From assembly GCA_964429815.1 (NCBI GenBank), contig CAYSCM010000001.1, positions 32,001 to 96,000 of the forward strand: a stretch of DNA of 64,000 bases, given 5' to 3'. Of the stretch, positions 441 through 39,620 are shown piece after piece. Within the stretch, counting starts at the first letter, position 1; every line of letters begins with the position of its first letter. The notes beneath the pieces are model-generated. The model was not told the origin of the DNA. It was given only the letters and a program-made list of their open reading frames with translations, and did not search any database. The DNA comes from an uncultured Candidatus Saccharibacteria bacterium (GTDB lineage Bacteria; Patescibacteriota; Minisyncoccia; Phycocordibacterales; CAYSCM01). The position numbers and the translations under genes were made by a program.

Positions 441-1028
441 TTAGCCGTAGGGCAGCTCAAAGGGATCCTTCTTGTGGACGACTTCGACCAGGAAGTTCGC
501 GAGGTCGCGAATCGCACCCTCGCCGCCTGGCCGGATGCTCACGAAGTGGCAAATCCTCTTGATGGCCTCCTCGCCGGAGATCGGCGCTGCCGAAAAGTGC
601 ACGGCCTTGAGCATCGCGACATCGACAAGGTCGTCGCCCATGGCCCCGCATTGATTAAGTGTTCCCCCGTGTTTGGCGAGCCATTCCTTGAGCGTCTCGA
701 GCTTCTTGGGCCCGCCGCACCCTTCGAAAAGGTCGATGGGGGGCCAGGCACCGCTTTTGCAGGAAGGGAGATTGTTCAGCCGCTCTACGAGCGCGCGGAC
801 ACCGGCTGCGTTATCATCCTTCTCGTTGGTGATGACGCACAGGCGGATGCCGAGCGCCCGCATAAGAGAGAGCCCCTGGCCGTCGTAGTACGTGCGGATT
901 TTGGGTTTGAATTTCACGCCCCCGATCTCGACGCCTTCCCACACGGTGTTTGGAAAAAGGCATCCGTCGGAATCAAACGCGAAGAAAGAGACTTCGCGGG
1001 CACGTTCGAGTACTTCGGTGGACCACAT
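441..1028 (-). CDS. KdsC/YrbI-family HAD phosphatase (sugar-acid phosphate phosphatase)
   Basis: FAFDSDGCLF (HAD motif I), VITNEKD and GDDLVD motifs. SD AGGAGG precedes MWSTEV at 1028; the ORF-track start at 1082 is probably too long. Confidence 0.7.
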   Translation of the reverse strand: MWSTEVLERAREVSFFAFDSDGCLFPNTVWEGVEIGGVKFKPKIRTYYDGQGLSLMRALGIRLCVITNEKDDNAAGVRALVERLNNLPSCKSGAWPPIDLFEGCGGPKKLETLKEWLAKHGGTLNQCGAMGDDLVDVAMLKAVHFSAAPISGEEAIKRICHFVSIRPGGEGAIRDLANFLVEVVHKKDPFELPYG

Positions 1029-1160
1029 GGTCCCTCCTGTTTGTTTGTTGGCTACTGTTTGGCCGGACGCATTCTGACACATCCATTTTATTTGTCAATA
1101 TTCTTCCAGGCTGTCTGGCAATAGAAACCCGTGCTAAGCTTCGCGAGTAACAAACGCGCT

Positions 1161-1737: not shown

Positions 1738-2454
1738 ATGAAAAACGATGTCGTGCTAGTGATCCCGGCTCGCGGTGGAAGCAAGGGAGTGCCGCGGAAA
1801 AATATCCGCCCGCTCTATGGAAAGCCCTTGGTTGCCTACACCATTGAAGCGGCGCTTTCCTCAGGAGCCATTAGCCGCGTTATTGTCTCGACCGATGATC
1901 AAGAGATTGGAGCAGTGGCAGAAAAATTTGGTGCGGAGTATCTTGACCGACCGAAAGAAATTTCCGGTGATAAGGTGACACTCGAGCCGGTGATTAAACA
2001 CGCTCTTGCGGCGCTAAAAGAAAAGGAAAACTACGTACCCACCTACATTGCCTGCATTCAGCCGACTTCCCCACTCCTTAGTGGAGATGTTATACGACGT
2101 TGTGTGGAAAAACTTACAAAAGAAAATTTTGATTCATGCATTACTGCGTTTTTGCCTGACACCTACGAATGGAAGTGGAGTCCAATCGTCAAAGACGGTA
2201 AAGAAGTCGGCTTCGAACCTGAACGACCTGTTATGAAGCGCGTGGTGCGGCAAGATTTGCCCAAGGTTTACCACGAGAACGGCGCCTTTTACGTCACCAA
2301 GACCTCACTTTTTAACGAAATCGGCCATCGCTGGGGAGGCAAGATGGCGATCGTTGAGATGACGCAGTTGAATTCTATACAAGTCGATAGCGAAGACCAA
2401 TTCTGGTTTATTGAACAGATCCTCCGCAAGCGCGAAAAAGACAACAAATCGTAG
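1738..2454 (+). CDS. acylneuraminate cytidylyltransferase family (CMP-ulosonic/nonulosonic acid synthetase)
   Basis: N-terminal VLVIPARGGSKGVPRKNIRPLYGKPLVAYTI is the NeuA/KdsB-type CTP-transferase signature. Confidence 0.8.
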   Translation: MKNDVVLVIPARGGSKGVPRKNIRPLYGKPLVAYTIEAALSSGAISRVIVSTDDQEIGAVAEKFGAEYLDRPKEISGDKVTLEPVIKHALAALKEKENYVPTYIACIQPTSPLLSGDVIRRCVEKLTKENFDSCITAFLPDTYEWKWSPIVKDGKEVGFEPERPVMKRVVRQDLPKVYHENGAFYVTKTSLFNEIGHRWGGKMAIVEMTQLNSIQVDSEDQFWFIEQILRKREKDNKS

Positions 2455-4431: not shown

Positions 4432-5394
4432 ATGAAGATAGTACGGTGGTCCATACCCAAGCACCTCGATCTGTCGATTGAGATTTCCGGTAGAGAACAT
4501 ATGGCACAGGGAGAAAAGATGGGGTCTACGAAAGCCTTGGATGTCCTGCGCGGAATAACCTTCAGCGGCTCAGCGCCGGCGATACAGTTTGCCGATGTCG
4601 AGTCTTTATTTTCCTTTGTAGAAAAAAAATTTTTACATAAGACATTTGCGGGAGTCGGCATCGAAGTCGGCGCGGGGCCGATGATATTTAGCTCGCTCCT
4701 TACGCGCTCACGACCAAACATTCAACAGATGTATGGAATCGAACTAAGTGGCGGTATCGTAGAATTCATTGCCCCGGGAGTGGTTGATGAATTGCTGGGA
4801 CCCAAGAGTGAAAAGGTAGTCGGGGTCATCGGCAGTTTCGACGCGATGGAGCTTACAAGCGAGAGTGTCGATTTTGTTCTTGATTTTATGTCGCTTCACC
4901 ATGCGACCGACCTCGGAGAGGCGTTCGCCGAATGCTACCGGGTGCTAAAACCAGGCGGCTTCGTTGTTCTTTTTGACAAGGCTCGCCCCGATTCCTTCAC
5001 CTCTCAAGACCTGGAGGGATTGCTCAATACCGAGTACAGCGATGAAGAGAAAAAACGCTTTGGGGTGCCTTCCGGCGAACACTTTACACGCCGGATGAAC
5101 GGGGAAAAAGAATACCGGCTTAAAGATTGGTCGGCGGGGGCCTTAGAGGCCGGTTTCCCGACCCTTATGCATTGGCGACTCGCGCGCACCAACGTGCCGG
5201 GTATCTCAGGATTGTACCGACGTTTGCTTTCTCATGTGCCGCTACGCACCCAGATGGCTACTACCGCTATTGCACAAAGCGTACTGGGCAGCGGCTCAAG
5301 AGTGAAGTTTTCACAAAAAAATTTGGTGTACTCGCGGTACGTGAACCCCTTCCCCCGCGAGATCTCGCTCATGATCGCGCACAAGGCTTACTAA
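4432..5394 (+). CDS. class I SAM-dependent methyltransferase
   Basis: Motif I GIEVGAGPM and post-I VLKPGGFVVLFD. Confidence 0.65.
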   Translation: MKIVRWSIPKHLDLSIEISGREHMAQGEKMGSTKALDVLRGITFSGSAPAIQFADVESLFSFVEKKFLHKTFAGVGIEVGAGPMIFSSLLTRSRPNIQQMYGIELSGGIVEFIAPGVVDELLGPKSEKVVGVIGSFDAMELTSESVDFVLDFMSLHHATDLGEAFAECYRVLKPGGFVVLFDKARPDSFTSQDLEGLLNTEYSDEEKKRFGVPSGEHFTRRMNGEKEYRLKDWSAGALEAGFPTLMHWRLARTNVPGISGLYRRLLSHVPLRTQMATTAIAQSVLGSGSRVKFSQKNLVYSRYVNPFPREISLMIAHKAY

Positions 5395-6299
5395 CTTCTC
5401 CACGCGCTCAGGTCGCGCCCGGTAAATGCCTCGAGTTTTTGCAGTTCGGGTTCATAGCGAGCGCGGAGGGCTTCTTTGAGCTTCGGGTCGAGCGTCCCGT
5501 AGCTAGCTTCCCCGGTCCCCGCCCTCGTGTCGATGGAGCGCACTACTTTTTGGTGGAGCGGCGTTTTGCGGAAGAGGGAGAGGAGGGGCTCTCCGAATGG
5601 CAGGGCTTTGAGTAGCTTCCGCGCCCTGAGCGCGTGTCTGCGCAAGAGTGTCGCTCCGGCGGAATTTATGGTCGTGGCGAGCGAGGGCGGCACGAACGAG
5701 GCATCGACGCCGATGAAAGAAAAGATATCTCTCATATATTTTTTTGGGTCGGCACGCATATCGTCATAGAACGTAATGAGTATCTGGTCGCGGGAAAATA
5801 CCTTGAGATAATTTTCGAGGTGCTTCATATAGAAGCTCTCCTCGATAAACGACGGTTTAGTTTTAATAATTTCCTCAAGGGTTGGGAGCTCATGTGCGCC
5901 CTTTAGCTTCGTGTACATGTAGTGGGAAAAAAAGCGCTCCGTAGGGTTTCGCAATACCGCAATGATCTTCGCTTTAGGAAAATGTGTACGGAGGCGCTCC
6001 GGCACCTCGGGTGCGTGAATATAGATAGGAGTGACTTCTCCGTATACCCTCTTCCCTACACAGTGACCAAAATGTTCAAAATACCCTTCGAGAGCGCCGT
6101 TGTATTTTGTTTTCCCCACCAAATCAGTGCGCCAGAAACTTTGCGTCGTGTTAAAAAAGTTGAGCTCTTTGGGTTCGGAAACACAGACCTCGGGGTGCTC
6201 TTTGAGACATTGGTGGAGCCAGGTGGTGCCCGTCCGCTCCGGACCAATCACGAAGAAATCAATGGAAAAAGGCTTTGCTGTAGATGAAATGGTACTCAT
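5391..6299 (-). CDS. sulfotransferase family protein
   Basis: 5'-PSB-like FFVIGPERTGTTWL and 3'-PB-like LRNPTERFFSHY PAPS-binding motifs. Confidence 0.75.
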   Translation of the reverse strand: MSTISSTAKPFSIDFFVIGPERTGTTWLHQCLKEHPEVCVSEPKELNFFNTTQSFWRTDLVGKTKYNGALEGYFEHFGHCVGKRVYGEVTPIYIHAPEVPERLRTHFPKAKIIAVLRNPTERFFSHYMYTKLKGAHELPTLEEIIKTKPSFIEESFYMKHLENYLKVFSRDQILITFYDDMRADPKKYMRDIFSFIGVDASFVPPSLATTINSAGATLLRRHALRARKLLKALPFGEPLLSLFRKTPLHQKVVRSIDTRAGTGEASYGTLDPKLKEALRARYEPELQKLEAFTGRDLSAWRS

Positions 6300-6931
6300 G
6301 AGGCCGTCGGGATGGATTCCTTGTCGCGGTTTGAGAAAAACAGGTAGTCGACGATGGCGTGGAAGAAAACCGCGTGAAGCGCCTCAACGGGACCGTAGGC
6401 ACCTTTTCCTGTCTCAATGATTATCTTGTGGTGACAGAGGCTCTTCGCTTTGCCTCCGTCAAAACCAAGAACGCCTATCGCCGTGCCGCCCTTAGCGCAT
6501 ATGTACTCGATCGCGCGAAGCACATTGGGGGAATTGCCACTTGCGGAAATGACGATGAGCACATCGTCGGGACGAAAAATGTGCTTAAGCTGGTCCGCAA
6601 AAACGTTCTCGTAGCCGACATCGTTCCCGAGCGCCGTCACGGCGGCGATATTGTTGAGCGCGTGAATACGAAACGGCTTTTCTTCCGTACCACCCCCGTT
6701 CGTGGTGAGATCGGCCGCAAAGTGAGCCGCCATGGCAGCGCTCCCCCCGTTGCCGGCGATGTAGATCGTAGAGCCCCTCTCCCGGGCCTTTTGAAGCACG
6801 TCGATAATCTCCTCGACCGCTTTGGAATCTACGGCGGAAGCAAGCTCGAAGGCATGCGCAAGATACCCTTCCATAAATTCGGGTACCGATCCTTTTGTCT
6901 TTTGATAGATGGTATCGACGTGTCCTCTCAT
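6296..6931 (-). CDS. gmhA: SIS-domain sedoheptulose-7-phosphate isomerase (GmhA-like)
   Basis: IYIAGNGGSAAMAAHFAADL and VISASGNSPNVLRAIEY motifs. 4-nt overlap with the next gene. Confidence 0.7.
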   Translation of the reverse strand: MRGHVDTIYQKTKGSVPEFMEGYLAHAFELASAVDSKAVEEIIDVLQKARERGSTIYIAGNGGSAAMAAHFAADLTTNGGGTEEKPFRIHALNNIAAVTALGNDVGYENVFADQLKHIFRPDDVLIVISASGNSPNVLRAIEYICAKGGTAIGVLGFDGGKAKSLCHHKIIIETGKGAYGPVEALHAVFFHAIVDYLFFSNRDKESIPTAS

Positions 6932-7932
6932 AGCGTTGTGAGCACCCCGCGGATGAGCTTCCCTTCCTCGAGGTCTTTGAGGGCGGCTCCTATCTCGTCG
7001 AAGGAATACTCTTTCGTAAGTAACTTATCCAAGCACATGACCTTCGGGTTTTCAACGTATTCACGCGCGTAGCGAGGAATGTCGCGGTCGAGCTCGCTCT
7101 CTCCGCCCCAGGTGCCGTAAAGCTTTTTGCCCTTGATGAGCCCGAAAGGGTTGATCGATATGGTTTCCCCGGGCGCAAGGTTTCCTGCAATAACGACGGT
7201 CCCGGCGTCCTTGACCGCGCGGTAGGCGCTCTCCATGGCGCCCTTGTTTCCCGAACACTCGACGGCCACATCGAAATCCTTTCCCTGAAACTCTTCGGCA
7301 GAGATCGCTTCATCGACGCCGAGCTCCTTTTTCGCATGCGCGAGCTTCCACGGAACGACGTCGATCGCGGTAACGTGAGCACCCTTCATGACGGCTCGAA
7401 TGAGTGCACTCGCTCCGATCCCCCCGATGCCGAATATAACCACTCGTTTGCCGTTGAGGTCTCCTAGGCGGTCGATGATACCCATGCCGGTCGGCACCGC
7501 GCACCCAAGAAGTGCCGCAATCGCGGGCTCCACCCCTTTTGACACCTTGGTGACACGATTCTCTGAGACGACCGCAAGCTCGGTAAACGTCGCCACGGAG
7601 CCACCGTTTACCTTCCCTTCTTTGCTTTGATACGTCGGCACCGGAGCGGATATACCCTCTCCAAGGATCCAACTTGCAACCACATAATCTCCGCTCCTTA
7701 CTTTCTGCACGCCTTCTCCGGCCGCGACCACCTCCGCTGCGGCTTCATGTCCCAATAAGTGGGGAATATATTCCGCTCCTTTCCTGCCGCGGATTTCATT
7801 GAGTTGGCTGTGGCAAAGTCCTGTCGCTAGCACTTTAATAAGTACCTGCCCCTTTTGAAGGGAGGGAACCTCAAGCTCCTCGATGGAGAGCGGTCCACCG
7901 ACGACGCGGAGTACTGCAGCGCGCGTTTTCAT
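6928..7932 (-). CDS. zinc-type (MDR) alcohol dehydrogenase family oxidoreductase
   Basis: GLCHSQLNE, GHEAAAEVVAAGEGV and GIGGIGASAL motifs. Start MKTRAAVL at 7932 is preferred over the track start at 7998. Confidence 0.75.
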   Translation of the reverse strand: MKTRAAVLRVVGGPLSIEELEVPSLQKGQVLIKVLATGLCHSQLNEIRGRKGAEYIPHLLGHEAAAEVVAAGEGVQKVRSGDYVVASWILGEGISAPVPTYQSKEGKVNGGSVATFTELAVVSENRVTKVSKGVEPAIAALLGCAVPTGMGIIDRLGDLNGKRVVIFGIGGIGASALIRAVMKGAHVTAIDVVPWKLAHAKKELGVDEAISAEEFQGKDFDVAVECSGNKGAMESAYRAVKDAGTVVIAGNLAPGETISINPFGLIKGKKLYGTWGGESELDRDIPRYAREYVENPKVMCLDKLLTKEYSFDEIGAALKDLEEGKLIRGVLTTL

Positions 7933-7933
7933 G

Positions 7934-8587
7934 CTAGGGGATAAACCAGTAGTAGTCACCCGTGTAGCCGACCTCGGCGAAGAGTTTTTTCCAATCATCG
8001 ACAGATAGGATGGTCTTTGCAGTAAGATTCCACTTCATCATGCGATCCTTCTCTTCTTCATGGTGGTAGGCGTCGACGGTAATGAACGAGTGTTTTCCTT
8101 TCACACGCTCAATCTCTCGAAGAGCCTCTTTACACTCAGGCAGTGGTAGGTTGTGAATGGTGTTAATCGAAATCACGAGATCGTAGGATTTATCCGCAAA
8201 TTGACTAAGATTTCTTGCATCTCCAACCGATACTGCGCCCGCAATTGAGGGCATGGCATTTTCGATAGCGTAGGAGGAAACATCAATACCGCGAACCACC
8301 ATGTGGGGAAGCCAATAGAGAAAATCATTAAGCATAAATCCCTTAGCACACCCGACATCAAGTACCGAAGAGTTGTTGTTGAGTCCGTAGTAATTTATGA
8401 AATCCCGAACCACCGGTACCCACCTCCCATCATAGCGGAAGCCGCCGTAGCCCTGATCCCTGGTGCCATCAAAAAACTCCCTGCCAAACTTTCGGGCAGT
8501 AGCAACATCCTCAGGAGACTTTTGTCCTCGAGCTTCAATGTTGCGTTTGGCTTTTGGATATTTCGAAAGAAGATCGATTTCTGCCAT
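7934..8587 (-). CDS. class I SAM-dependent methyltransferase
   Basis: VLDVGCAKGFMLNDF motif I. Confidence 0.7.
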   Translation of the reverse strand: MAEIDLLSKYPKAKRNIEARGQKSPEDVATARKFGREFFDGTRDQGYGGFRYDGRWVPVVRDFINYYGLNNNSSVLDVGCAKGFMLNDFLYWLPHMVVRGIDVSSYAIENAMPSIAGAVSVGDARNLSQFADKSYDLVISINTIHNLPLPECKEALREIERVKGKHSFITVDAYHHEEEKDRMMKWNLTAKTILSVDDWKKLFAEVGYTGDYYWFIP

Positions 8588-8596
8588 AGTGGTTGG

Positions 8597-10366
8597 TTAT
8601 TTTTTTTCGGGAAGAAGCTTAACCATCATGTTGTCATTGAACTCTTTTCTTGCAAGTAGCGGCTCGGGATCCTCGAGCGGCCGACCGAACTTTACCTGCG
8701 GGATTACGCGGTGCTTCGGGTTAATCTCGATGTTACAAAACACAGGCCCCCTCATCGCGAGCACCTTCTTAACTCCCCCGCTCAACTCGCGGTTCTTCTT
8801 GATCGTAATGGTTTTGAAGCCAAAGGAGGAAGCAATTTTGGCAAAGTCTGGGAACGCAAGTCCTCCCCCTTCCGAAGACGCAAGATACGCCGAATTAAAC
8901 CACTGATCTTGAGTCTGCTGTATCATACTGTAGCCGTGGTTATTCAATACAAAAATCTTGATCGGAAGTTTGTGCTTGAGAAGGGTACTTAACTCTTGCA
9001 AATTCATTTGGAGTGAACCATCTCCGGTTACACAAATAATTGATTTCTTGTTAAGCGCCAGGCTTACCCCAATGCTCGCCGGCAAAGCCCACCCCATCGC
9101 GGTGTTGTTCCAATCGTGGTAAAGACGCTGACCTTTCTTGAAGGAAAATCCCTGCATCATCCATGCGACCGTGCAGCCGGTATCAATGACCATTACTTCG
9201 TTCTGACGCGTGTAGCGAGAGAGCTCCTCAACAAATACATACGGATTGACCCCTTTCTCTTTGTAGTACGCGGGTGGGCACATGGGATATTTTTTCTTCC
9301 ATGCGGCAATACGTCTAAGCCAGGGTGAGATGTCGTTTTTTGGCAAACGTGCGGCGTGCTTTTGAAATGCCTTCAGCAGCTCTTTTGCGTCACCGGAGAT
9401 ACGCACATCGACTTTCAGGCCAAATTTTTTAAACTTCTTAAGTTCGTAGGGGTCAATATCGATGACTATCTTTTTTGCCTCTCGCGCAAACGTGTTGGGA
9501 GGACTACCCGTCGATTTGGTATCAAGACGGCTTCCGATTGAGAGGATCATGTCAGCGTTCTGGACGGCAAAATTGGCAAACCGCGTGCCGTGAGTGCCAA
9601 AGGTGCCGATGCGAAGTGGATGACTCTCTGGCAGGAGATCCCCTGCCCCCCATGTGAGTGCCGCAGGAAAGCCGAGTGTTTCCAAAAGTGAGATGGCCTC
9701 TTTTTCGGCCCCCGCGAGGTGGATTCCCCACCCAAACACAACGACGGGGCGCTTCGCCTGCCGTAGATAGTTTATGCTTCGAGCTACATCAACCGGCGCT
9801 TTCTTCTTCTCGACGGAGGGTGTAAACGAGGGAAGCTCTCCTGGATTAATTTCTCTGCGCTGAATGTCGTCGGGAATATCGAGCACTACGGGTCCTGGCC
9901 TACCACTTCGCGCCAGAAAGATCGCTTTCTCAAGCTCGTAGCGTATGCGCCTCTCATCGGTGATGAGTATCGCGTACTTAGTGATAGGACGATACATTTC
10001 GACCGTTGCCGTTTCTTGAAAACCCACTTGCCGCACGTTGGTATGACCTTTCATCCTAAAGGTGGCTACTTGGCCGGTAATAAATATGACGGGTACCGAA
10101 TCGTAGTAGGCGGAGCACACTCCCGTGATCATGTTCGTAGCACCTGGCCCTGAGGTGGACATCGCTACACCGAGGCCACCCGTGGCCCTCGCGTACCCGT
10201 CGGCAGCCATTGCCCCCGCTTGCTCGTGTCCTGGACAGATGACCTCCATTCCCCCCGTGCGCGCCACCGAATGAATAAGGTGAAGGGATGCTCCGCCGGA
10301 GATGGCAAAGACATGCTTCACCCCTTCTTTGCGGAGAACCTGTGCTACGTAGTCGGTGAGCTTCAT
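8597..10366 (-). CDS. thiamine-diphosphate enzyme of the acetolactate-synthase large-subunit family
   Basis: 589 aa with three-domain ALS architecture: N-terminal GVKHVFAISGGASL and C-terminal GDGSLQMNLQELST ThDP motif. Confidence 0.8.
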   Translation of the reverse strand: MKLTDYVAQVLRKEGVKHVFAISGGASLHLIHSVARTGGMEVICPGHEQAGAMAADGYARATGGLGVAMSTSGPGATNMITGVCSAYYDSVPVIFITGQVATFRMKGHTNVRQVGFQETATVEMYRPITKYAILITDERRIRYELEKAIFLARSGRPGPVVLDIPDDIQRREINPGELPSFTPSVEKKKAPVDVARSINYLRQAKRPVVVFGWGIHLAGAEKEAISLLETLGFPAALTWGAGDLLPESHPLRIGTFGTHGTRFANFAVQNADMILSIGSRLDTKSTGSPPNTFAREAKKIVIDIDPYELKKFKKFGLKVDVRISGDAKELLKAFQKHAARLPKNDISPWLRRIAAWKKKYPMCPPAYYKEKGVNPYVFVEELSRYTRQNEVMVIDTGCTVAWMMQGFSFKKGQRLYHDWNNTAMGWALPASIGVSLALNKKSIICVTGDGSLQMNLQELSTLLKHKLPIKIFVLNNHGYSMIQQTQDQWFNSAYLASSEGGGLAFPDFAKIASSFGFKTITIKKNRELSGGVKKVLAMRGPVFCNIEINPKHRVIPQVKFGRPLEDPEPLLARKEFNDNMMVKLLPEKK

Positions 10367-10370
10367 GGCG

Positions 10371-11228
10371 CTACCAGGGCATCTGCTCCTTAACGCTTAT
10401 AAAGAGTGTCCCGTCACGGTAGCTCTCGGGCATATCGCCGGCTTTTGTGACAAGTCCCCACCCTATCTTCTGCGAGAACAAATTGACGCCGGAGCCTGTA
10501 AAGTGCTTGAAAATGTGCTTGGCATTCTCCGCGGTCCCAACCTCGACCAGGCCGTCACAGCTCTCCCAATCGGAAGCTTCGGTCGAGAGGAGTACTTCCT
10601 TCTCGTGCCCTTCGACGTCCATTTTGATGAGATCAGCGCCGGCGAGAATCGGCCCGAACGCTTCGAGCTCCACGGAGAACATTTCCCGATCCCCGTAGAC
10701 GTCGTGCTTTGCTCCCGAGAGGTGACTCCCCGTAGTGTTGCCGAGCACTCGGGTAAAATCTGCTGAACCCGAGCGACTTGAGACGGCGCTGTTGTGAAGG
10801 CTGGCAGAATTACATCCGTTACGCGCAAGATTTTTTTTGAGGATATCGAAATGAACCGGATCGGGCTCGTAGGAGGAAACCTTAAAACCACAACGACAAA
10901 GGATAATCGAGTGAAGTCCAATATTTGCTCCGAGGTCTACAACGCTCGTATAGCGATTGCGATTGCGCCAGTAAAAACTGAAAATAACGAGTTCATTGAG
11001 GTCAAAGAGATTCCGCGAATCGACATTACCCATGTTGTGGTATGGAAACGAGATATCTCCAAATGGCGGAAAGTGGACCGACTCTTTTGAATCAACGGGA
11101 AAGAGCCTCTCCACTTCCTTCCGAGCTTTGGCGGCACGTTCTTTGAATGGCGCGCTTGTCGGAGTATGAGAGGGTAATTCCTGCGGGAGCGTGGCAAAGA
11201 TATTCTCCAAAAAAGCCGAGGATTCCAT
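10371..11228 (-). CDS. FkbM-family methyltransferase
   Basis: VVDLGANIGLHSIIL...YEPDPVHFDILKKNL is typical of FkbM. Confidence 0.7.
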   Translation of the reverse strand: MESSAFLENIFATLPQELPSHTPTSAPFKERAAKARKEVERLFPVDSKESVHFPPFGDISFPYHNMGNVDSRNLFDLNELVIFSFYWRNRNRYTSVVDLGANIGLHSIILCRCGFKVSSYEPDPVHFDILKKNLARNGCNSASLHNSAVSSRSGSADFTRVLGNTTGSHLSGAKHDVYGDREMFSVELEAFGPILAGADLIKMDVEGHEKEVLLSTEASDWESCDGLVEVGTAENAKHIFKHFTGSGVNLFSQKIGWGLVTKAGDMPESYRDGTLFISVKEQMPW

Positions 11229-11244
11229 GACGGGAGATACCCTA

Positions 11245-12042
11245 TCAGATTTTTCGTAATTTTAATAGCTCGGGGTCACGCGCGAGCGTTTTTGAAAAGC
11301 GCGCGCTCCCCCACGCGTCATAGACAACGTGTACATCTCTTCCCCCGACTACCTTTTTTGCTGACCCAATGACCCAGTCGAGACAGTCGAGAACTCGCTC
11401 CATGGGTATAAAGTCCCCGCGCGCTAGCTTTTTCCTTGTTCGAGCATACGTATCGCCCGCGCGCCTGCCGGCGGTGATAGTCTCCTGATGGATTTTGCTG
11501 CGCACCCAACCGGGGCCTATGGTGACGAAGCGAGCATCGTTCAGCTCCGCGTCGAGGATTTCAAACATTTTTATGGTCGCTATCTTTGAAACGGTATACG
11601 CCGAGAAATTGCGTGGTGCGTTGTTCGTCCCCCCACCAGAAAATGAAATTATGCAGGGTTTTTTGGATTTCGAACGTCTGGGCAGAAGTCCGTGGATGAT
11701 GCCCATGTGAGAAAGAAAATTGAGGCGAATTGATTTTTCCCAGTCTCCGAAAGAAACGCGTTGAAAAGCTCCTATGGGCGTAAGGGTCGCCGGAGCCAGT
11801 ACAAGAACGTCCCAGGCCACCGCGAGGCTCCGCAACGTACGTAGCGCCCTATGTACAGAGGCAGGTCGAGCGACGTCACAGTGTATAAGGTGTGCGCCAA
11901 GTTTTTGCAATCCTTCTGTGGTGTGGCTGCCGGTTCTATACGTGCCGAAAACCGCCCAGCCGCGGTTTAAGTATCTTCGAGCTATGGCGGTGCCGATATC
12001 GCTTGAAATGCCGACGATGATTATTGAGCCAGTTTTTTTCAT
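11245..12042 (-). CDS. short-chain dehydrogenase/reductase (SDR)
   Basis: GISSDIGTAIARRYL NAD(P)-binding motif and YTVSK catalytic motif. Confidence 0.75.
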   Translation of the reverse strand: MKKTGSIIIVGISSDIGTAIARRYLNRGWAVFGTYRTGSHTTEGLQKLGAHLIHCDVARPASVHRALRTLRSLAVAWDVLVLAPATLTPIGAFQRVSFGDWEKSIRLNFLSHMGIIHGLLPRRSKSKKPCIISFSGGGTNNAPRNFSAYTVSKIATIKMFEILDAELNDARFVTIGPGWVRSKIHQETITAGRRAGDTYARTRKKLARGDFIPMERVLDCLDWVIGSAKKVVGGRDVHVVYDAWGSARFSKTLARDPELLKLRKI

Positions 12043-12215: not shown

Positions 12216-13496
12216 ATGCGCCAAAAATTGAGCACCCTTGTCGAAAAACTGACGGTCGCGACCGGCATAAACTTTTCCTACCTCCTGCGCGGAGGGTCCT
12301 GGGCGTTTTCCGAGCAGGTGGTTACCAACGCCATCTCCCTCCTCCAGGCCATCGCGTTTGCCAACCTTATCTCTCCGCAGACGTATGGAGTGTTTAGTGT
12401 CGTGCAATCGTGGATAGGCATTCTCGTTACGTTCGCGCTCGGGAGCCTTCCAAACGCGCTTATAAAAAGCGTTGCGGAAGGCAACGACGGGGAGCTCAAA
12501 CGCGGATTTCTCCTCAAGCTTAAGTATGCTCCCCTTGCCTCTCTGCTCGGGCTCGGATTCTCCTTCTACTATCTATTTATAGGGAACAATACGACCCTCG
12601 CTTACTCGTTTCTCATTGCTTCGTTTTGCATGCCGCTTTACGTAGCGCTTCCGCAGGTCACGTTCTTCCTGTTCGCCAAGGGAGCATTTCTCGATAAGTT
12701 CATCGTGCAAGTGAGCGTTAGTCTTGCTTCGCTGGCAGGAATGACTATTTCAATGCTCTATTTCGGTTCTGTTCCATACCTGATGCTCGCCTACTTCATT
12801 CCACCGATCATCGTGAACGGCATCTTTTTTTGGCGCACGCTGCGCACCAAGGTTCATAATGCCAAGACCGGCGCGAACACGGAGCGGTTTGCGCTCCACC
12901 TTACGGGCATGAGTCTTCTTGGTTCGATAACCAAAAACATCGACCAACTCCTCATGTTCCACTTCAGCGGCGCAGTTCAGCTCGCGGTATATAAATTTGC
13001 CTTGATTCCCATACGAAAGCTGGAGACCTTTTTCCAGATCATCCTCGATCTGCTCCTCCCGCGATTTGCCAAGAGAGAGTACCGCGAGATTTACCAGGGG
13101 TTCGACAGAAAGCTCCTCCTTTCAGGCGCTTTTTCGTTGACGGTCGTGGCTGTTTATTTTTTCAGCATCCCCTACCTCTACAAGCTCTTTTTCCCGAAAT
13201 ACACCGACGCGGTGATATACTCGCGACTCCTTTCCCTGCTGTTTTTGTTTGGCCCTCTCTCATACGTTCAGCAGCTTTGGCTTGCGAAGGCGGAAACTAA
13301 ACGTCTCTATTTTTTAAAAATTCTCGGTGATTCCACCCGGATCTCACTTCATGTCGCGCTTATTCCCGTATTTGGGATCGCCGGTGCAGTGGGAAGCCGG
13401 ATGGTCGCATCCTCCTTTGTCAGCACCGCGGCATTCATTTTATTTTTGAAGGATAGGAGACGGTACGGTAAAGGCTCGAAGCGCCAATCGCAGTAA
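12216..13496 (+). CDS. Wzx-like polysaccharide/oligosaccharide flippase (MOP superfamily)
   Basis: 426 aa, polytopic and hydrophobic throughout, in a glycan-locus context. Confidence 0.65.
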   Translation: MRQKLSTLVEKLTVATGINFSYLLRGGSWAFSEQVVTNAISLLQAIAFANLISPQTYGVFSVVQSWIGILVTFALGSLPNALIKSVAEGNDGELKRGFLLKLKYAPLASLLGLGFSFYYLFIGNNTTLAYSFLIASFCMPLYVALPQVTFFLFAKGAFLDKFIVQVSVSLASLAGMTISMLYFGSVPYLMLAYFIPPIIVNGIFFWRTLRTKVHNAKTGANTERFALHLTGMSLLGSITKNIDQLLMFHFSGAVQLAVYKFALIPIRKLETFFQIILDLLLPRFAKREYREIYQGFDRKLLLSGAFSLTVVAVYFFSIPYLYKLFFPKYTDAVIYSRLLSLLFLFGPLSYVQQLWLAKAETKRLYFLKILGDSTRISLHVALIPVFGIAGAVGSRMVASSFVSTAAFILFLKDRRRYGKGSKRQSQ

Positions 13497-27936: not shown

Positions 27937-29073
27937 TTAGGTAACGGCCCGAAGGGACTCGAGAATGAGGCGCGCCCGCGCTTCCCAGCTGTAGCGTTTC
28001 GCGAGTTCGCGAGCGACCCGACCTCGATCCACAAATTTGCCCCGAAGTCCTTCGAGCACCGTTTTCAAAAGAATTTCCCCATCGCCAGCGGGAACGAATG
28101 CCGCCTCCCGGTCGGAGAGAATTTCCCGCACCGAGGGAAGATCCGTCGTGACAATAGGAATTCCGCTCGCCATGTAGCTGAACATTTTAAGCGGTGACAT
28201 AAACTTGGCGTAGTGTTCCGTGTTTGGATAGTTCATGACGTGCACGTTGGCGGCTCGGAAATAACCGACCATGTCCTTTTGTGATGGAGTAGCATTAATA
28301 TGAAATTGACTATCTCGAAGACCGGCAGAGTGTGCCATATCGATCGCACGAGCCCTATCGACCTGCGACATACCAGCAAGAAGTAAATACGCGTTTGGTT
28401 CCTCATGGAGTAGTTTCGGAAACAGACGTATAAGCTCCTCGACGCCCTTGCCCCTTCCCATGGTGTGGAGTGCCCCTACATACCCGACCACCTTCGCTTC
28501 GGAGGGGATGCCGTTGCCCCGACGCCACACTCCTACATCAAACGGCTCACGGTAGGGTCGCACATCGACTCCATCGTGAGCTACCACGATCTTCCCAGGA
28601 TCCACCCCTTCGCTCTTCAGAAGCTCTGCGTGTGCTCCCGTGATGGCAACAATGAGCCGAGCACGTTGAAATAGAATTCGAGCGAATCGATTCAGTTTTT
28701 TGGTGTGAACTTCCCACACTACCCTCCCCGTTTTTGCGACAAGAGAAAGCGCCACCTCATCACGACCGTAGATGATATCCGCTCTCGAACTGCGAGCGTA
28801 GAGGTACGAAGCGAAAGCAAACGTTACCACCTGTACGAAAAAGCCAGCGCTCCCGAATCGCACGAGGTCGAGCGAGAAAAGCCTTACGATGCGAAACTGC
28901 GTGCGCACATCATAAAACTCAAACGGATCGACAGCAAGCCGACCGAAGCGCCACGGTACTGCGAGAATCACCTCATGGCCTTCACGGGCAAAGGCCTCGC
29001 ACATCTTCACGACCTGGAGGCCATGCGCCTTCTCGGTCGGCAGTCGGATGTTGGCGACGTAGAGGATTTTCAT
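27937..29073 (-). CDS. GT4-family glycosyltransferase
   Basis: ANIRLPTEKAHGLQV at the N-terminus and the typical GT-B C-terminal domain. Confidence 0.8.
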   Translation of the reverse strand: MKILYVANIRLPTEKAHGLQVVKMCEAFAREGHEVILAVPWRFGRLAVDPFEFYDVRTQFRIVRLFSLDLVRFGSAGFFVQVVTFAFASYLYARSSRADIIYGRDEVALSLVAKTGRVVWEVHTKKLNRFARILFQRARLIVAITGAHAELLKSEGVDPGKIVVAHDGVDVRPYREPFDVGVWRRGNGIPSEAKVVGYVGALHTMGRGKGVEELIRLFPKLLHEEPNAYLLLAGMSQVDRARAIDMAHSAGLRDSQFHINATPSQKDMVGYFRAANVHVMNYPNTEHYAKFMSPLKMFSYMASGIPIVTTDLPSVREILSDREAAFVPAGDGEILLKTVLEGLRGKFVDRGRVARELAKRYSWEARARLILESLRAVT

Positions 29074-29876
29074 AGACTCCTGCGACGCTTATAGAGAAAA
29101 TTGAGCCAGCCGAACGCTAGGTTAAATGCGAGCTGCCGTGTCCACGAAAGATTCTCCTTCCAGGACTCATCGAGCTCTATTTTCTCACTCGCTTCCCCCT
29201 TCATACGGTTGCCACTTATTTGATGATGCGGAAAGGCCCGAAAAGAGAGCATGGCGGGTTCGTAGGAGAGGCCGACCGCTTCCAAGATGCGGGCGAGGGA
29301 TTCCTGCGGATGCGCAACAAGCTCCTCATAGCGCAAGAACAGGTAGCGCGCTTTGACCCTCCTGCGCAGAAGCTCGACTTTGGCGTTCATGAAAAACCAG
29401 CGCGAGAGCGAGAACCACACATGGGCTCCATATTTACGCAGATAGGATGAAAATACCCCGCGCCCGTCTCGCACTACGTGCACGATTACGGGGTCGGGGA
29501 GCGCCCGGCACATGAGTTCGGTATAGTCAGCGTTCTTTGATGAGTCGACAACGACCGAGGCCCCCTTGGTAGCGGCAGCCTTGGTATAGATGGTACGGAC
29601 ACGTTCTCGGTACTGCGCGATGTCGACCGCCTTCCCTGTCTTGGCGTAACGATAATTTTTTGAGCCGAATAGAAAACCGCTTTTGCTTCGGGCTACGTCA
29701 AAGAGTTCCCCTTTCGGGAGAATGTCCCGCCAAAAAGGGTCACTGGTGGGGTCCGAATCCTCCGAGACGAGCTCGCCGATGCCGATGACTTTCGAATGTG
29801 AGTCGAGAAGAAGGTCCAGGAGTGTTGAGCCACTGTGCCCACTTCCGAGGATAAAGAGTACTTGGGGGATTCGCAT
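29070..29876 (-). CDS. sulfotransferase family protein
   Basis: LFILGSGHSGSTLL (5'-PSB) and HVVRDGRGVFSS (3'-PB) motifs. Start MRIPQ at 29876. Confidence 0.7.
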   Translation of the reverse strand: MRIPQVLFILGSGHSGSTLLDLLLDSHSKVIGIGELVSEDSDPTSDPFWRDILPKGELFDVARSKSGFLFGSKNYRYAKTGKAVDIAQYRERVRTIYTKAAATKGASVVVDSSKNADYTELMCRALPDPVIVHVVRDGRGVFSSYLRKYGAHVWFSLSRWFFMNAKVELLRRRVKARYLFLRYEELVAHPQESLARILEAVGLSYEPAMLSFRAFPHHQISGNRMKGEASEKIELDESWKENLSWTRQLAFNLAFGWLNFLYKRRRSL

Positions 29877-33291: not shown

Positions 33292-34515
33292 CTATACACT
33301 AGCGAGCGCCTCCCTGATAACTTCCTCCACCCGTTCACGGGAAAACAAGCTCTGCGAACACGCAACCGCCGCACGGGACATGGCCGCACGGACGGCGACA
33401 TTGCGTAGCGTTGAAAGCGCGGAGAGATACTCCTTAGCCGTCTCGGCATAGAACACTTCCTTCCCGTTTTCGAAGGGATAACCGACCGTACTGTACTTGG
33501 ACGTTATGAGCGGGACGCCACGCACCAGGGGTTCGAACACTTTTCCCTGCATGCCGACGCGCTTCGGGGATGGGACTAGGGCGATATCCATCGAACGCAC
33601 GTAGGTCGGAAATTCTTCGGAGGGGATGAAGCCGTCGTGGATGATCGTTTTTCCGTCGATATATTTCCGAAAATAATCGGGGAGTCGTGTGCCGGAGATA
33701 TGGAGCTCGTAGGCACCTGGAGAAGATCTTGCAAGTTCTGGCATGATGCGCCCCAGAATGAACTGAAGTGCCTTGCGGTTGTGGGATATGGCGTAGGAAG
33801 ATCCCAAAAAGAGCACCCGCAGCGGTTTCATCTCGCGAATAGGGTGAGATTCCCCTATGAGAGCGGGAAGCCATCGAAGCGGCAGCACTTCGACTTTCCG
33901 TGCTCCTAGACGCGCGTAGGCGGCTGCGTCGTTGGGATTGAGCGCTAGGATAAGTGTACTTTTTTTAGAGACCAGCCACTCGCTCATGAGTTTTATGAGA
34001 TAGCGTGGAATAGTTAGAAGCGAACGTTCGTGTTCCTCGAGGAAATGACGTGCTTCGAAATTTATCGATCGCGTTATTATCGGGATTCCGCGCGAACGAA
34101 CTTCTCCATAGAGTGGCCACAGATAGGTGTAGTCGAACCAAACAACGTCCGGCTGAAATGTGTTGAGTTCTTCCGCCAGTACCCTCCTCGTCAGCGGGTC
34201 ACTATACTCAAACGCCGCCCCGTCCCAAAGCCGCGGATCGATGAGACGCCGCAGGAAGCGCCCGAGACGCTCCTGGGTCGACCTCTCTCGGGCGAACGAG
34301 TAGGTGACTGGCCGTATTGGAATTCCCCACGTCCTCTGCGCTTCCTCCACCGCGCTCCTATCCGAAGGGACGACCATGACGATGACCCGCACCCTGCAGC
34401 CAAGCTTTTGGAGAAGCTTGATGCCCATGCCCCGATCAAGTTCATCGGCTCCCTGCATGGAAAAGGGGGTGCGAGGCGTTACCACCAGCACTTTCTTGCC
34501 GCGGATCCCTTCCAT
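33292..34515 (-). CDS. GT4-like glycosyltransferase
   Basis: GT-B layout with C-terminal MQGKVFEPLVRGVPLITS. Confidence 0.65.
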   Translation of the reverse strand: MEGIRGKKVLVVTPRTPFSMQGADELDRGMGIKLLQKLGCRVRVIVMVVPSDRSAVEEAQRTWGIPIRPVTYSFARERSTQERLGRFLRRLIDPRLWDGAAFEYSDPLTRRVLAEELNTFQPDVVWFDYTYLWPLYGEVRSRGIPIITRSINFEARHFLEEHERSLLTIPRYLIKLMSEWLVSKKSTLILALNPNDAAAYARLGARKVEVLPLRWLPALIGESHPIREMKPLRVLFLGSSYAISHNRKALQFILGRIMPELARSSPGAYELHISGTRLPDYFRKYIDGKTIIHDGFIPSEEFPTYVRSMDIALVPSPKRVGMQGKVFEPLVRGVPLITSKYSTVGYPFENGKEVFYAETAKEYLSALSTLRNVAVRAAMSRAAVACSQSLFSRERVEEVIREALASV

Positions 34516-34516
34516 G

Positions 34517-36331
34517 TTAGGTTTTTATGGAAAATGCTTTCGCCCACAGCTGGAACACCAGGAGACTCCACAGGCTTTGGAGATGATATCCGCCTTGCTG
34601 GTGGTCCTTGCGAAGCCGTTCTATCTCATGCCAGTTAAAAAGGCTTTTTGTTTCGACGTAAAATGATGGAGAAAGTACCTCCCTGGCAAATGCTGCGACG
34701 TCGGGACGACGCAGCCACTTTGCGGCTGGAGAAAACCACCCCCTTTTTTCCTGGCTGAGGAGAAACTCCGGCACATGACCGCGGAGCGCCTCTTTGTAGA
34801 GTATTTTTTTATCAAACGACGAAATGAGATCGCTCTGGGATAATCGATCCGCGAAGGAAAGAAGCTCCAGGTCGAGGAGCGGCACGCGCACCTCAAGCCC
34901 CGCGGCCATCCCCATCTTATCGGTACGCAGTAGCGCCTCATCGACAAGCCAATTCTTTCTGTCGACGGCCATGAACTGTTTTTCAAATGACTTCTCTACC
35001 GTCGGGAATCTGTTGCTCAGATATTCGAGGACGGGCTCACTATTGTTGTCACCTTTTTCAAGAATCGCTTGCACAGTATCCTCCGTTTGCAACATGAACC
35101 ACGCGAAACGCTCTCCTCCCTCTTCTGTCGACAGGGGTTTTAGTTTTTTATTGAGCAACCCGAGCTTTGAAAATAGCGGAATGCGACGAAGTAAACTTAG
35201 CTGATGTGATTTGCGATAACGCTCATATCCACCAAAGAGTTCATCGCCCCCGTCACCTGCGAGAGCTACTGCAACCTGCGGTTTTGTGAATTCCGCAAGT
35301 TTGAGCATAGAAAGCGACGTCGGATTCCAGTTTGGATCATCGAGATGCCAAACCGCCTTTTCGAGATAGGGGATAACCTCTGTGGCGGAAAAGAGGACAC
35401 TATGATGTTCAACACCAAACTGTGCCGCAGCGCGCTTGGCAAGTTCAAGATCTGCATTGAATTTTTCTTTTTGCTCTCCCTCCTCAAGTTCAAACCCTAC
35501 GCTAAACGTTTTCAGTTTGTGTCCCGTCTCAAAGAGAGCTGCCAGGATAGCATTTGAATCTAGGCCTCCCGAAAGATAGAGCCCTACTGGGCGATCAGAA
35601 ACAAGTTGGCGACTTACGCCCCCCTTCAACACTTCCCATAGCTTGTGCGCGCGGTCTGTTCGGTCCGCTGGCAGGAAAATCTCTCTCTCATACGCTTGGT
35701 ATGTGCTAAGTGATATTTCGCCACGACGGTACTTGAGCACCTGACCTGGTTGAATACGAGATATGCTCTCAAACATTGTCGTGGGTCCTGGCGTATAGAG
35801 AAATCGGAAATAGAGATTGAGCGAATCGCGATTAAGTTTTCGAGTAATTCCCGTTTCGAGGAGCGCCTTGATCTCCGAAGAAAAAAAGAGCTCGTTATCC
35901 TTTTCTAGATAGTAAAGAGGCTTGATGCCGACCGGGTCGCGCACGAGATAGAGAGTTTCTTCTCTCTCGTCCCAGAGCGCAAAAGCAAACATGCCATTGA
36001 AACGTGAGAGGCAGTCAACTCCCCATCTCTCCCACGCCGCCAAGATAACTTCGGTATCGCTCTCGCTCCGAAAGGGGTAGGCCGGCAATTCTTTCTTGAT
36101 ATCGCGGTAGTTGTAGAGTTCTCCGTTGTAGGTAATGGTGAATCGCCCGTCGTGGCTTGCCATCGGCTGTTTGCCACCCTCGGAGAGGTCAATGATAGCG
36201 AGGCGATTGTGCCCCAAGGTTACTTTCCCAGCCCAAAGCCCCGTGCCGTCGGGGCCCCGGTGGTTGGTTTCTTTATTCATCCGCTCAACAAGAGCGGAGT
36301 GACTTCCCGTACATCCGTTAATGCCGCACAT
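34517..36331 (-). CDS. asnB: asparagine synthase (glutamine-hydrolysing) family amidotransferase
   Basis: MCGI N-terminal nucleophile Cys and the SGGLDS PP-loop motif. Confidence 0.85.
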   Translation of the reverse strand: MCGINGCTGSHSALVERMNKETNHRGPDGTGLWAGKVTLGHNRLAIIDLSEGGKQPMASHDGRFTITYNGELYNYRDIKKELPAYPFRSESDTEVILAAWERWGVDCLSRFNGMFAFALWDEREETLYLVRDPVGIKPLYYLEKDNELFFSSEIKALLETGITRKLNRDSLNLYFRFLYTPGPTTMFESISRIQPGQVLKYRRGEISLSTYQAYEREIFLPADRTDRAHKLWEVLKGGVSRQLVSDRPVGLYLSGGLDSNAILAALFETGHKLKTFSVGFELEEGEQKEKFNADLELAKRAAAQFGVEHHSVLFSATEVIPYLEKAVWHLDDPNWNPTSLSMLKLAEFTKPQVAVALAGDGGDELFGGYERYRKSHQLSLLRRIPLFSKLGLLNKKLKPLSTEEGGERFAWFMLQTEDTVQAILEKGDNNSEPVLEYLSNRFPTVEKSFEKQFMAVDRKNWLVDEALLRTDKMGMAAGLEVRVPLLDLELLSFADRLSQSDLISSFDKKILYKEALRGHVPEFLLSQEKRGWFSPAAKWLRRPDVAAFAREVLSPSFYVETKSLFNWHEIERLRKDHQQGGYHLQSLWSLLVFQLWAKAFSIKT

Positions 36332-37373
36332 GTTCGATAAGTATAGTCGAAATCGTTTTTACGATGGCTTTGGTGCTGAAGCGCTCTCCCGCCACACGCG
36401 AGAGGTACGCTCCGATCTGGGGGCGGTCGACCGACTCGACGAGCGCACGTATTCGCTCCGCGAGCGCTATGGGGTCGCGTTCGGGAAAGGTGAGACGCGA
36501 GGCGTACTGCCCAAAGTATCCGCTAAACGCGACATTGCTCACGATGGGAGGTGTTCCCGCGGCCATGGATTCGATGACGGCTTTATCGAGGCCGCCGGGC
36601 GGGGTCATATTGACGGAAACGCTCGCCCGACAGTACCACACGGGAAGTCCCTCGTTGGGAATGGAGCCTATAAAACGGACGGTCTTCCCTAGTCCGCGTT
36701 CTTCGACGAGCCTGAGAAGCTTTTTTTCATATGCGCGATCGCTTTCGTGGACCGGAGCTCCAATGAACGTGACGCTGAACCTCTCCTTCCAGTGACGCTT
36801 TAAGATCTCTGCCGCCTCGATGAGCGTATCGCAGTTCTTGATGGGCGTGATACGCCCGACGCTTATGACGGCACGCTCCTCACGCGCAGAGCTCTCGCAG
36901 GCAAAGCGCCCCACCTCGATGCCATGCCCGAGAATGTGAAGTTTCCGCGACGGCAACCGAAAGCTGTAGCGCGATGCGGTTAAGACCGCGTGGCTGAAAA
37001 GATGCGCTACGTAGAGCTTGAGGTTCACCTGCCGATGCGTATACCATAATCCGACCCGCTTTCCCATAAGGCGCCAGGGTATGCCGCCCAAGACGACATA
37101 CTCGGGATTCATGTGAACGAGTACGACGTCGTACGGACGACGGATGGAAAAAATATATTGATAGAAACGCCACAGGTACGTGAGCCTCCCGGCACCTTCC
37201 TCCTTCCCCAGCGAGCGCACATGGACGTTCTCGGGTAGTGTAGCTCCTCCGCGTTCAAGACAGATGACCTCGACGGCCGTAAAGTGCCGTGCGAATTCCT
37301 GCAACCACGATATGACGTACGCTAGAAGATCGTCGTCTTCGTCAATTTTCTGGGTAATAAAGAGGAGTCGCAT
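36318..37373 (-). CDS. GT4-family glycosyltransferase
   Basis: GT-B C-terminal domain GGLDKAVIESMAAGTPPIVSN. Confidence 0.75.
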   Translation of the reverse strand: MRLLFITQKIDEDDDLLAYVISWLQEFARHFTAVEVICLERGGATLPENVHVRSLGKEEGAGRLTYLWRFYQYIFSIRRPYDVVLVHMNPEYVVLGGIPWRLMGKRVGLWYTHRQVNLKLYVAHLFSHAVLTASRYSFRLPSRKLHILGHGIEVGRFACESSAREERAVISVGRITPIKNCDTLIEAAEILKRHWKERFSVTFIGAPVHESDRAYEKKLLRLVEERGLGKTVRFIGSIPNEGLPVWYCRASVSVNMTPPGGLDKAVIESMAAGTPPIVSNVAFSGYFGQYASRLTFPERDPIALAERIRALVESVDRPQIGAYLSRVAGERFSTKAIVKTISTILIEHVRH

Positions 37374-37374
37374 G

Positions 37375-39587: not shown

Positions 39588-39620
39588 AGGAGTAGTATAA
39601 CGGCAAACCATGGCTCTCGG

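Follow-up and report, generated by a model that had tools for sequence, protein, structure and literature searches.

Two genes for putative sulfotransferases, here called ST-A and ST-B, are located in a large glycan locus of an uncultured Candidatus Saccharibacteria bacterium of the Patescibacteriota (contig CAYSCM010000001.1, positions 32,001 to 96,000; this stretch of 64,000 nucleotides is called the window below, and coordinates refer to it). The window has no gene for sulfate activation, which raises the question of where the sulfo donor comes from. A preliminary description of this DNA had proposed that, if the genome lacks synthesis of 3'-phosphoadenosine 5'-phosphosulfate (PAPS), the donor would have to be scavenged, for example from a host cell, or replaced by another. 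We found that a gene with ATP-sulfurylase and adenosine 5'-phosphosulfate (APS) kinase domains, a fused Sat-CysC, lies in the same cluster just beyond the window edge. It is probable, as judged from sequence, that a Wzx-type surface glycan is sulfated in the cytoplasm with PAPS from this fused protein, by two sulfotransferases of different subfamilies.

Both open reading frames (ORFs), 5391-6299 and 29070-29876, were found exactly where the preliminary description had placed them on the minus strand, and the four motifs quoted in it (PERTGTTW, RNPTERFFS, GSGHSGSTL and RDGRGVFSS) were all located in them (Table 1). It had also stated that an assignment of the proteins by profile searches to P-loop families other than sulfotransferases would refute its proposal; profile and fold searches were run, and both placed ST-A and ST-B in the sulfotransferase family. 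ST-A matched the Pfam families Sulfotransfer_1 (2.1e-22, 80.2 bits; gathering cut-off 22) and Sulfotransfer_3 (1.5e-18, 68.3 bits; gathering cut-off 27). Sequence matches in the PDB were the Alicyclobacillus sulfotransferase 3RNL over the full length (3.3e-30), the sulfotransferase domain of NDST1 (~1e-12) and the 3-OSTs (3e-11 to 4e-9, with 3-OST-1 at 3e-11). The AlphaFold model of ST-A (mean confidence, pLDDT, 83.4) retrieved the same proteins with Foldseek, namely 3RNL (8e-16), NDST1 (1e-11) and 3-OST-1/3/5 (~1e-10), and all 50 top listed PDB matches were sulfotransferase-fold proteins.

Alignment of ST-A with its homologues revealed nine invariant columns: G19, K44, E45, F49, G87, E88, R117, P119 and S125. 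In the 5'-phosphosulfate-binding (5'-PSB) loop, compared among 16 homologues, G19 was invariant and T25 near-invariant, and the basic residue was either K or R; PERTGTTW of ST-A aligned with GPQKTGTT of NST-1. The PKELNFF motif we take to be the counterpart of the KExxFF motif carrying the catalytic Glu of 3-OST-1 (Glu90) and NST-1 (Glu642), a correspondence at the level of sequence. The 3'-phosphate-binding (3'-PB) motif RNPTERFFS aligned with INPADRAYS of NST-1 and RNPVDRAFS of 3RNL. The heparan-sulfate N-sulfotransferase, the 3-O-sulfotransferases and 3RNL share the 5'-PSB and RNPxxRxxS motifs, and probably the KExxFF motif, with ST-A and are its nearest solved relatives in both sequence and fold; however, they are no more than 19-25% identical to it, its PSB loop has Arg where Lys is usual, and it has neither a Golgi anchor nor a deacetylase domain.

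ST-B starts with the ATG at 29876, the same ATG as in the public gene call P0041, while the longest ORF, with a TTG start, reaches 29924. It matched Pfam Sulfotransfer_3 (6.5e-22, 79.3 bits; gathering cut-off 27), and its sequence matches in the PDB, the CurM sulfotransferase and TPST2, were weak (~3e-5). The AlphaFold model (pLDDT 93.3) had as best Foldseek matches the CurM sulfotransferase (3.9e-8) and TPST2 (1.8e-7), followed by the olefin-synthase sulfotransferase, TPST1, Stf9 and 3RNL. The 27 matches below E=1e-3 were all of sulfotransferase fold, one of them being retinol dehydratase, and P-loop kinases and GTPases appeared only beyond E ~1e-3.

In the 5'-PSB loop of ST-B, G16 and T18 were invariant and G13 and H14 near-invariant (His in 19 and Lys in one of 20 sequences); the loop aligned with PRSGSTLL of the CurM sulfotransferase and PRSGTTLM of TPST2, and His14 is located where TPST2 (Arg78) and CurM carry Arg. 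As the alignment reads, the His is a trait of the ST-B subfamily, in which the loop geometry would be kept while the residue differs. This near-invariant His, in the context GHSGSTLL, stands where characterised sulfotransferases have Lys or Arg. The 3'-PB motif RDGRGVFSS aligned with VRDGRASVHS of TPST2, and E35, S113 and K114 were also near-invariant. E35 aligned in sequence with Glu99 of TPST2, which we take to be catalytic. The TPST1/2 and CurM/olefin-synthase sulfotransferase domains share with ST-B the xSG(S/T)T(L) loop, a Glu after strand 2 and RDGR...S, and are its nearest solved folds (E 4e-8 to 1e-6). They differ from it in that identity is 17-22% and that ST-B has His14 for Arg, is a stand-alone protein of 268 aa and is paired with a GT4 glycosyltransferase in glycan clusters. 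Many members of the ST-B subfamily also have a CxCG...C insertion, which ST-B itself does not have.

Judged by Pfam profile, by their conserved motifs and by the fold predicted for them, ST-A and ST-B are both PAPS-type sulfotransferases, and the agreement of their motifs is far above chance expectation. The two share ~22% identity (E ~1e-3), and therefore are not recent duplicates. No equivalog match to NodH/NoeE was obtained; with the NCBIfam NoeE model, for which the cut-off is 500, the scores were 13.5 and 29.1 bits. No hydrophobic stretch of membrane-spanning length was found in either protein, so both should act in the cytoplasm. A search of all six frames of the window for a third sulfotransferase-like 5'-PSB loop found none. 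Homologue searches returned 35,528 cluster representatives (50% identity) for ST-A at E<=1e-3 and 593 at 1e-30, among 1.84 billion, and 499 matches for ST-B at E<=1e-5; given these numbers, the earlier statement that bacterial carbohydrate sulfotransferases are comparatively rare is weak at the sequence level.

The absence of CysD, CysN and CysC from the 64 kb, as described earlier, was confirmed: Pfam scans of ~50 larger ORFs gave no match to PF01747, PF01583 or PF01507, and neither an ATP sulfurylase or APS kinase nor a CysQ was detected in the window by tblastn with a PAPS synthase of Candidatus Kaiserbacteria and two CysQ-like proteins. The further statement that no sulfate-activation genes are nearby does not hold. 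A public contig of 63,154 bp (Logan SRR12313482_12957) matches the window with 0 mismatches over 16,299 bp (L001) and 11,028 bp (L003), and runs ~14.5 kb further left. On it, ~9.2 kb to the left of position 1 of the window and ~15.5 kb from ST-A, is the start of a fused ATP-sulfurylase/APS-kinase gene. The N-terminal 105 aa of its product matched PUA_2 (6.2e-12) and showed 54% identity to the Kaiserbacteria PAPS synthase; among the GTDB representatives scanned, which do not include this genome, the best matches to the same fragment were the N-termini of Sat proteins at 50-54% identity, from many genomes including those of cyanobacteria and Desulfobulbus. The order PUA_2, ATP-sulfurylase, APS_kinase in the 608-aa protein is that of the fused ATP sulfurylase-APS kinases of Aquifex and fungi. 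These data show that the sulfotransferases are physically linked to a gene with Sat and APS-kinase domains; the cluster thus appears to encode its own PAPS synthase, an activity that its domains predict. Since this gene belongs to the same cluster, the missing activation genes are an effect of the window edge.

The scenario in which the genome is unable to make PAPS, and takes it from a host cell or uses another sulfate donor, is consistent with the lack of Sat, CysC, CysDN and CysQ within the 64-kb window, and with a groundwater study in which sulfur-metabolism functions were absent from almost all Patescibacteria metagenome-assembled genomes (MAGs) (PMC8672522). It is at odds with the fused gene described above, which is on the same strand as ST-A and on a contig matching the window without mismatch, and also with relatives of the candidate phyla radiation (CPR) that have PAPS synthase and CysQ right beside their sulfotransferases. 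With a predicted PAPS synthase in the cluster, the proposal of a scavenged or replaced donor is largely refuted, and we regard it as extremely improbable. The result is mainly a correction: the apparent metabolic gap closes when the sequence flanking the window is included, and there is no case for PAPS scavenging or an exotic donor.

The co-occurrence check in related genomes that had been suggested was carried out, and sulfotransferase, PAPS synthase and CysQ were found side by side in several relatives. The homologues of ST-B with ~40% identity carry the labels Candidatus Magasanikbacteria, Kaiserbacteria and Paceibacterota. On the Kaiserbacteria contig (L088), an ST-B homologue is immediately followed by a 547-aa gene product with PUA_2, ATP-sulfurylase and APS_kinase domains, in which RNPIHRGH, GRDHAG, GLSGAGKST and LDGD are intact, and then by an Inositol_P (CysQ-like) gene. 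Two metagenome loci (L092 and L114), with enzymes 68% identical to that of Kaiserbacteria, both have the gene order sulfotransferase, PAPS synthase, CysQ. A Magasanikbacteria contig (L087, GCA_014729395.1) has a glycan cluster with seven sulfotransferases, at the end of which are a CysQ-like gene and an APS kinase. As CysQ follows PAPS synthase in L088, L092 and L114, by analogy a CysQ-like gene may be located just past the available sequence here. Tight linkage of sulfotransferase and PAPS synthase is frequent but not universal.

Some candidate-phylum genomes, L087 and L006 (GCA_054013255.1), have a single glycan cluster with five to seven sulfotransferase genes that belong to several subfamilies; L006 also has a faint sulfatase-like gene. 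Such multi-sulfotransferase clusters suggest heavily or variably sulfated glycans.

Table 1. Coordinates of the two sulfotransferases, their motifs, the PAPS synthase and glycan genes of the locus
Feature	Position in window	Strand	Basis
ST-A sulfotransferase, heparan-sulfate NST/3-OST-like subfamily, 302 aa, ATG start	5391..6299	(-)	Pfam, PDB sequence matches, Foldseek
ST-A 5'-phosphosulfate-binding loop PERTGTTW, aa 20-27, Arg22 at Lys position	6219..6242	(-)	homologue alignment
ST-A PKELNFF motif, candidate catalytic Glu	6153..6173	(-)	K44, E45, F49 invariant in homologue alignment
ST-A 3'-phosphate-binding motif RNPTERFFS, aa 117-125	5925..5951	(-)	R117, P119, S125 invariant
ST-B sulfotransferase, Sulfotransfer_3 (TPST/CurM-like) subfamily, 268 aa	29070..29876	(-)	Pfam, Foldseek
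ST-B 5'-PSB loop GSGHSGSTL, aa 11-19	29820..29846	(-)	homologue alignment
ST-B 3'-PB motif RDGRGVFSS, aa 136-144	29445..29471	(-)	R136, D137, G138, R139 invariant; S144 near-invariant
Fused Sat-CysC (predicted PAPS synthase), 608 aa	~-9243 to -11069 (L003:20272 onward)	(-), as ST-A	PUA_2 + ATP-sulfurylase + APS_kinase, precomputed Pfam
Short-chain dehydrogenase/reductase (SDR), ST-A operon	11245-12042	(-)	Pfam/NCBIfam
FkbM methyltransferase, ST-A operon	10371-11228	(-)	Pfam/NCBIfam
Acetolactate-synthase-like thiamine pyrophosphate (TPP) enzyme, ST-A operon	8597-10366	(-)	TIGR00118 2.5e-134, below cut-off
Methyltransferase, ST-A operon	7934-8587	(-)	Pfam/NCBIfam
Zn-dependent alcohol dehydrogenase (Zn-ADH), ST-A operon	6928-7932	(-)	Pfam/NCBIfam
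GmhA-like SIS isomerase, ST-A operon	6296-6931	(-)	Pfam/NCBIfam
GT4 glycosyltransferase (Glycos_transf_1 + Glyco_transf_4)	27937..29073	(-)	Pfam; start overlaps ST-B stop by 4 nt (ATGA)
Wzx-type flippase (Polysacc_synt)	12216..13496	(+)	Pfam 1e-16
Initiating phosphoglycosyl transferase (Bac_transf)	56237..57586	(-)	Pfam 1e-53
Glycosyltransferase block (GT1/GT4 x5) + AsnB-like amidotransferase	33292..40880	(-)	Pfam
PseF/KdsB-like CMP-ulosonic-acid cytidylyltransferase	1738..2454	(+)	NCBIfam PseF 3.4e-44, below family cut-off; Pfam CTP_transf_3
B12-type radical SAM enzyme	2565-4307		Pfam/NCBIfam
Split transketolase	16250-17401		Pfam/NCBIfam
Sugar C-methyltransferase (Methyltransf_14)	29975-31243		Pfam/NCBIfam

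To annotate the neighbourhood, ~50 larger ORFs of the window were scanned against Pfam, and NCBIfam was used in addition. A glycan supercluster covers roughly -11 kb to +41.7 kb together with 55-59 kb, and the window holds most of it. Given the glycosyltransferases, sugar-nucleotide enzymes, Wzx flippase and initiating phosphoglycosyl transferase around both sulfotransferase genes, a sulfated glycan, as proposed in the preliminary description, is the most likely product. ST-A is the final gene of a tightly packed minus-strand operon, with the SDR, FkbM, TPP enzyme, methyltransferase, ADH and SIS genes upstream (6296..12042) and ATGA start/stop overlaps at ADH/SIS and SIS/ST-A. The remaining glycan genes of the window include several methyltransferases, a TagD-like cytidylyltransferase, a TagF-like glycerophosphotransferase, a DegT aminotransferase, two enzymes of the GDP-mannose-dehydratase family and several epimerases; there are seven GT1/GT4 glycosyltransferases and, further along with Bac_transf, another GT4. 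The TPP enzyme, split transketolase, C-methyltransferase and radical SAM enzyme together suggest branched-chain or C-methylated sugars, such as those of yersiniose-like chemistry.

Orthologues of ST-A (51-59% identity) were always located inside glycan clusters. One of them (L004) is accompanied by the same NeuB, cupin, HAD, radical-SAM, cytidylyltransferase, SIS and ADH set as here, and those in L089 and L091 are beside an epimerase and a GMC oxidoreductase. As these neighbours differ, they do not point to a single acceptor for ST-A. A conserved ST-A/NeuB cassette, leading to a sulfated ulosonic acid, was considered; L004 speaks for it, but in L089 and L091 the ST-A orthologue has another setting, and it was kept only as a possibility.

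The stop codon of ST-B overlaps the start of the GT4 gene, and the two are likely to be translationally coupled. The GT4s that adjoin ST-B homologues have this one as their best match, both in L006 (32% identity, 1e-54) and L087 (28% identity, 2e-49); the ST-B/GT4 pair is therefore conserved. These data bear on whether the acceptor, most of all that of ST-B, might be no glycan, and instead a protein or peptide tyrosine, as for TPST or RaxST, or a lipid or acyl intermediate, as for CurM or the olefin synthase, the glycan setting being coincidental. The identity of the best solved relatives of ST-B (the CurM, TPST1/2 and olefin-synthase sulfotransferases) is in line with this idea, as is the alignment of E35 with the presumed catalytic Glu of TPST2. 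However, identity to TPST and CurM is low (17-22%), the GT4 overlap is 4 nt and the pair recurs in two other genomes, every ST-B homologue locus examined that has annotated neighbours is a glycan cluster, and no polyketide synthase, RiPP (ribosomally made, modified peptide) or peptide-precursor genes are nearby. A non-glycan acceptor is thus unlikely.

In the reading that we favour, sulfation of a glycan, the fused Sat-CysC would convert sulfate to APS and then to PAPS, as its domains suggest. The soluble ST-A and ST-B would transfer the sulfo group onto sugar hydroxyls, or possibly onto amino groups. ST-A would probably act on the sugar made by its own modification operon, and ST-B probably on the residue added by its partner GT4. 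The substrates would be glycan sugars or their nucleotide- or lipid-linked precursors at the cytoplasmic face, before flipping by Wzx, which would then export the lipid-linked unit begun by the Bac_transf enzyme. Family, fold, motif conservation, gene order and linkage were observed, and from these we infer the activity, the acceptor and the timing of sulfation.

Several points weigh against this reading. The nearest solved relatives of ST-B act on protein tyrosine or acyl-ACP (acyl carrier protein) and not on sugars, and in its 5'-PSB loop a His replaces the usual Lys or Arg. The 608-aa product was read for its first 105 aa only, its Sat and kinase domains being those of the precomputed Pfam annotation, and fused Sat-APS kinase proteins with an inactive kinase-like domain exist. 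Neither a sulfate transporter nor CysQ was seen in the ~84 kb examined, the window and L001/L003 included. Among relatives, no Sat or APS-kinase gene was present within 10 kb at L004, L006 (with five sulfotransferases), L089, L090 and L091. ST-A orthologues in four other loci were without one at this distance, and so was an ST-B homologue locus.

The His of ST-B, together with Arg for Lys in ST-A, also bears on a different explanation, that the proteins, although of sulfotransferase fold, do not catalyse a reaction or do something else, for example bind PAP or nucleotides or act as kinase-like P-loop enzymes. We consider this very unlikely: the His is near-invariant, the one exception being Lys, and the exchange of K and R is seen among ST-A homologues. 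The 3'-PB RDGR...S, the candidate catalytic Glu and further motifs are conserved, which is what purifying selection on an active site would lead one to expect, and P-loop kinases ranked below the sulfotransferase-fold matches in the fold search. Cytoplasmic sulfation of a surface glycan, for which the cluster would supply its own PAPS, thus remains the probable reading.

The sequence left of the window has further glycan genes. Leftward from position 1 are two 2-hydroxyacid dehydrogenases, two AAA_33 kinases, NeuB, a cupin and a second PseF-like cytidylyltransferase, and then, before the PAPS synthase, a HAD phosphatase and two unannotated proteins of ~350 aa. The AAA_33 proteins, L003:12826-13458 (-) of 210 aa and L003:13620-14333 (+) of 237 aa (~window -1800 to -3300), are adjacent to each other and beside NeuB. 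These P-loop kinases were considered as divergent APS kinases and rejected, with no PF01583 match at E<=0.1, no NCBIfam match and no significant similarity to a genuine APS-kinase domain. The two ~350-aa proteins, L003:15983-17011 (-) and L003:19196-20272 (+) (~window -5000 to -9240), show weak mutual similarity (44% over 45 aa, E 3e-5), and each adjoins a CMP-ulosonic-acid or PAPS-synthase gene; both could be new transferases for glycosyl or ulosonic-acid residues.

Within the window, a 407-aa protein (13509-14732, minus strand), with no Pfam family and no predicted transmembrane segment, is located between Wzx and the TagD-like gene, and is conserved in the identical Logan contig. Directly after the glycosyltransferase block are genes for a lamin-tail-domain protein, a VirD4/TraG-like coupling ATPase and a DUF4015 glycosyl-hydrolase-like protein (41719-45975); the ATPase and DUF4015 genes are found in the same order in MAG GCA_030647535.1 (L089:18305-20897). 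These three genes are neighbours typical of Patescibacteria/CPR and, with the labels of the ST-B homologues and the synteny with MAG contigs (L089), make such an origin of the DNA probable from its sequence as well. The ORFs 474-1124 (+), 17447-18016 (-), 19752-20318 (+), 27116-27580 (+) and 49161-49610 (-), which are Arg-rich and without family matches, were set aside as likely shadow ORFs.

The rRNA genes of the window are unlinked and all on the minus strand (16S at 50519-51980; 60916-61021; 61464-64000), with 23S-5S ~9 kb from 16S, a separation that is compatible with a Patescibacteria/CPR origin but is no proof of it. Between them are genes for a 264-aa protein, FtsW/RodA, a GT4, a phosphoglycosyl transferase, an epimerase and SecD/SecF. 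Two tRNA genes were found at 48309-48392 and 48544-48616, with tRNA-Ile(GAT) ~2 kb beyond 16S; no tRNA-Ala was found. Proteins encoded right of ~48.6 kb (57650-58762 was queried) were retrieved only on 8.8-kb contigs bounded by rRNA genes, whereas the records of ST-A and ST-B are from an NCBI contig of 501,704 bp. Evidently, the rRNA genes of this region are where short-read assemblies break.

As this locus and related ones suggest, sulfated surface glycans are something in which some Patescibacteria invest, with a dedicated PAPS module, and this could bear on the interaction of episymbiont and host. A more general proposal, which we put forward tentatively and think somewhat doubtful, is that Patescibacteria with reduced genomes keep a compact sulfation-only module (sulfotransferases, fused Sat-CysC and, in relatives, CysQ) solely for decorating a surface glycan, with ST-B as the His variant of the 5'-PSB loop. 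If so, the glycan might be made of branched, C-methylated, heptose- or ulosonic-acid-type sugars, and sulfated glycans could determine attachment to host cells. ST-A and ST-B could also be mined as polysaccharide sulfotransferases. In the open-access literature, no report on sulfotransferases in CPR, Patescibacteria or Parcubacteria was found, and the mentions of Sat in PMC10811913 concern other taxa.

Linkage of a sulfotransferase to a dedicated PAPS module is itself known from other systems. NodH with NodPQ in rhizobia and RaxST with RaxPQ in Xanthomonas are such pairs, with a lipochitooligosaccharide and a peptide tyrosine as the respective acceptors. NodPQ and RaxPQ are GTPase-coupled sulfurylases of the CysDN/CysC type, unlike the homo-oligomeric Sat with PUA_2 found here. 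For polysaccharides, a cluster with sulfotransferase and PAPS-synthesis genes is a hallmark of the synthesis of sulfated polysaccharides (PMC11641403). The capsular cluster of Vibrio sp. KMM 8419 (PMC11641403) is, like the present one, a large glycan cluster with several sulfotransferases and its own PAPS-synthesis genes. Its product is chemically proven, whereas ours is predicted from genes; it has separate cysD, cysN and cysC genes and ABC (Kps) export, whereas the present cluster has a fused Sat-CysC, looks dependent on Wzx and probably belongs to a Patescibacteria host of reduced genome. The pattern of sulfotransferases and PAPS genes in one glycan cluster has thus already been described, and the modest new element here is the host lineage.

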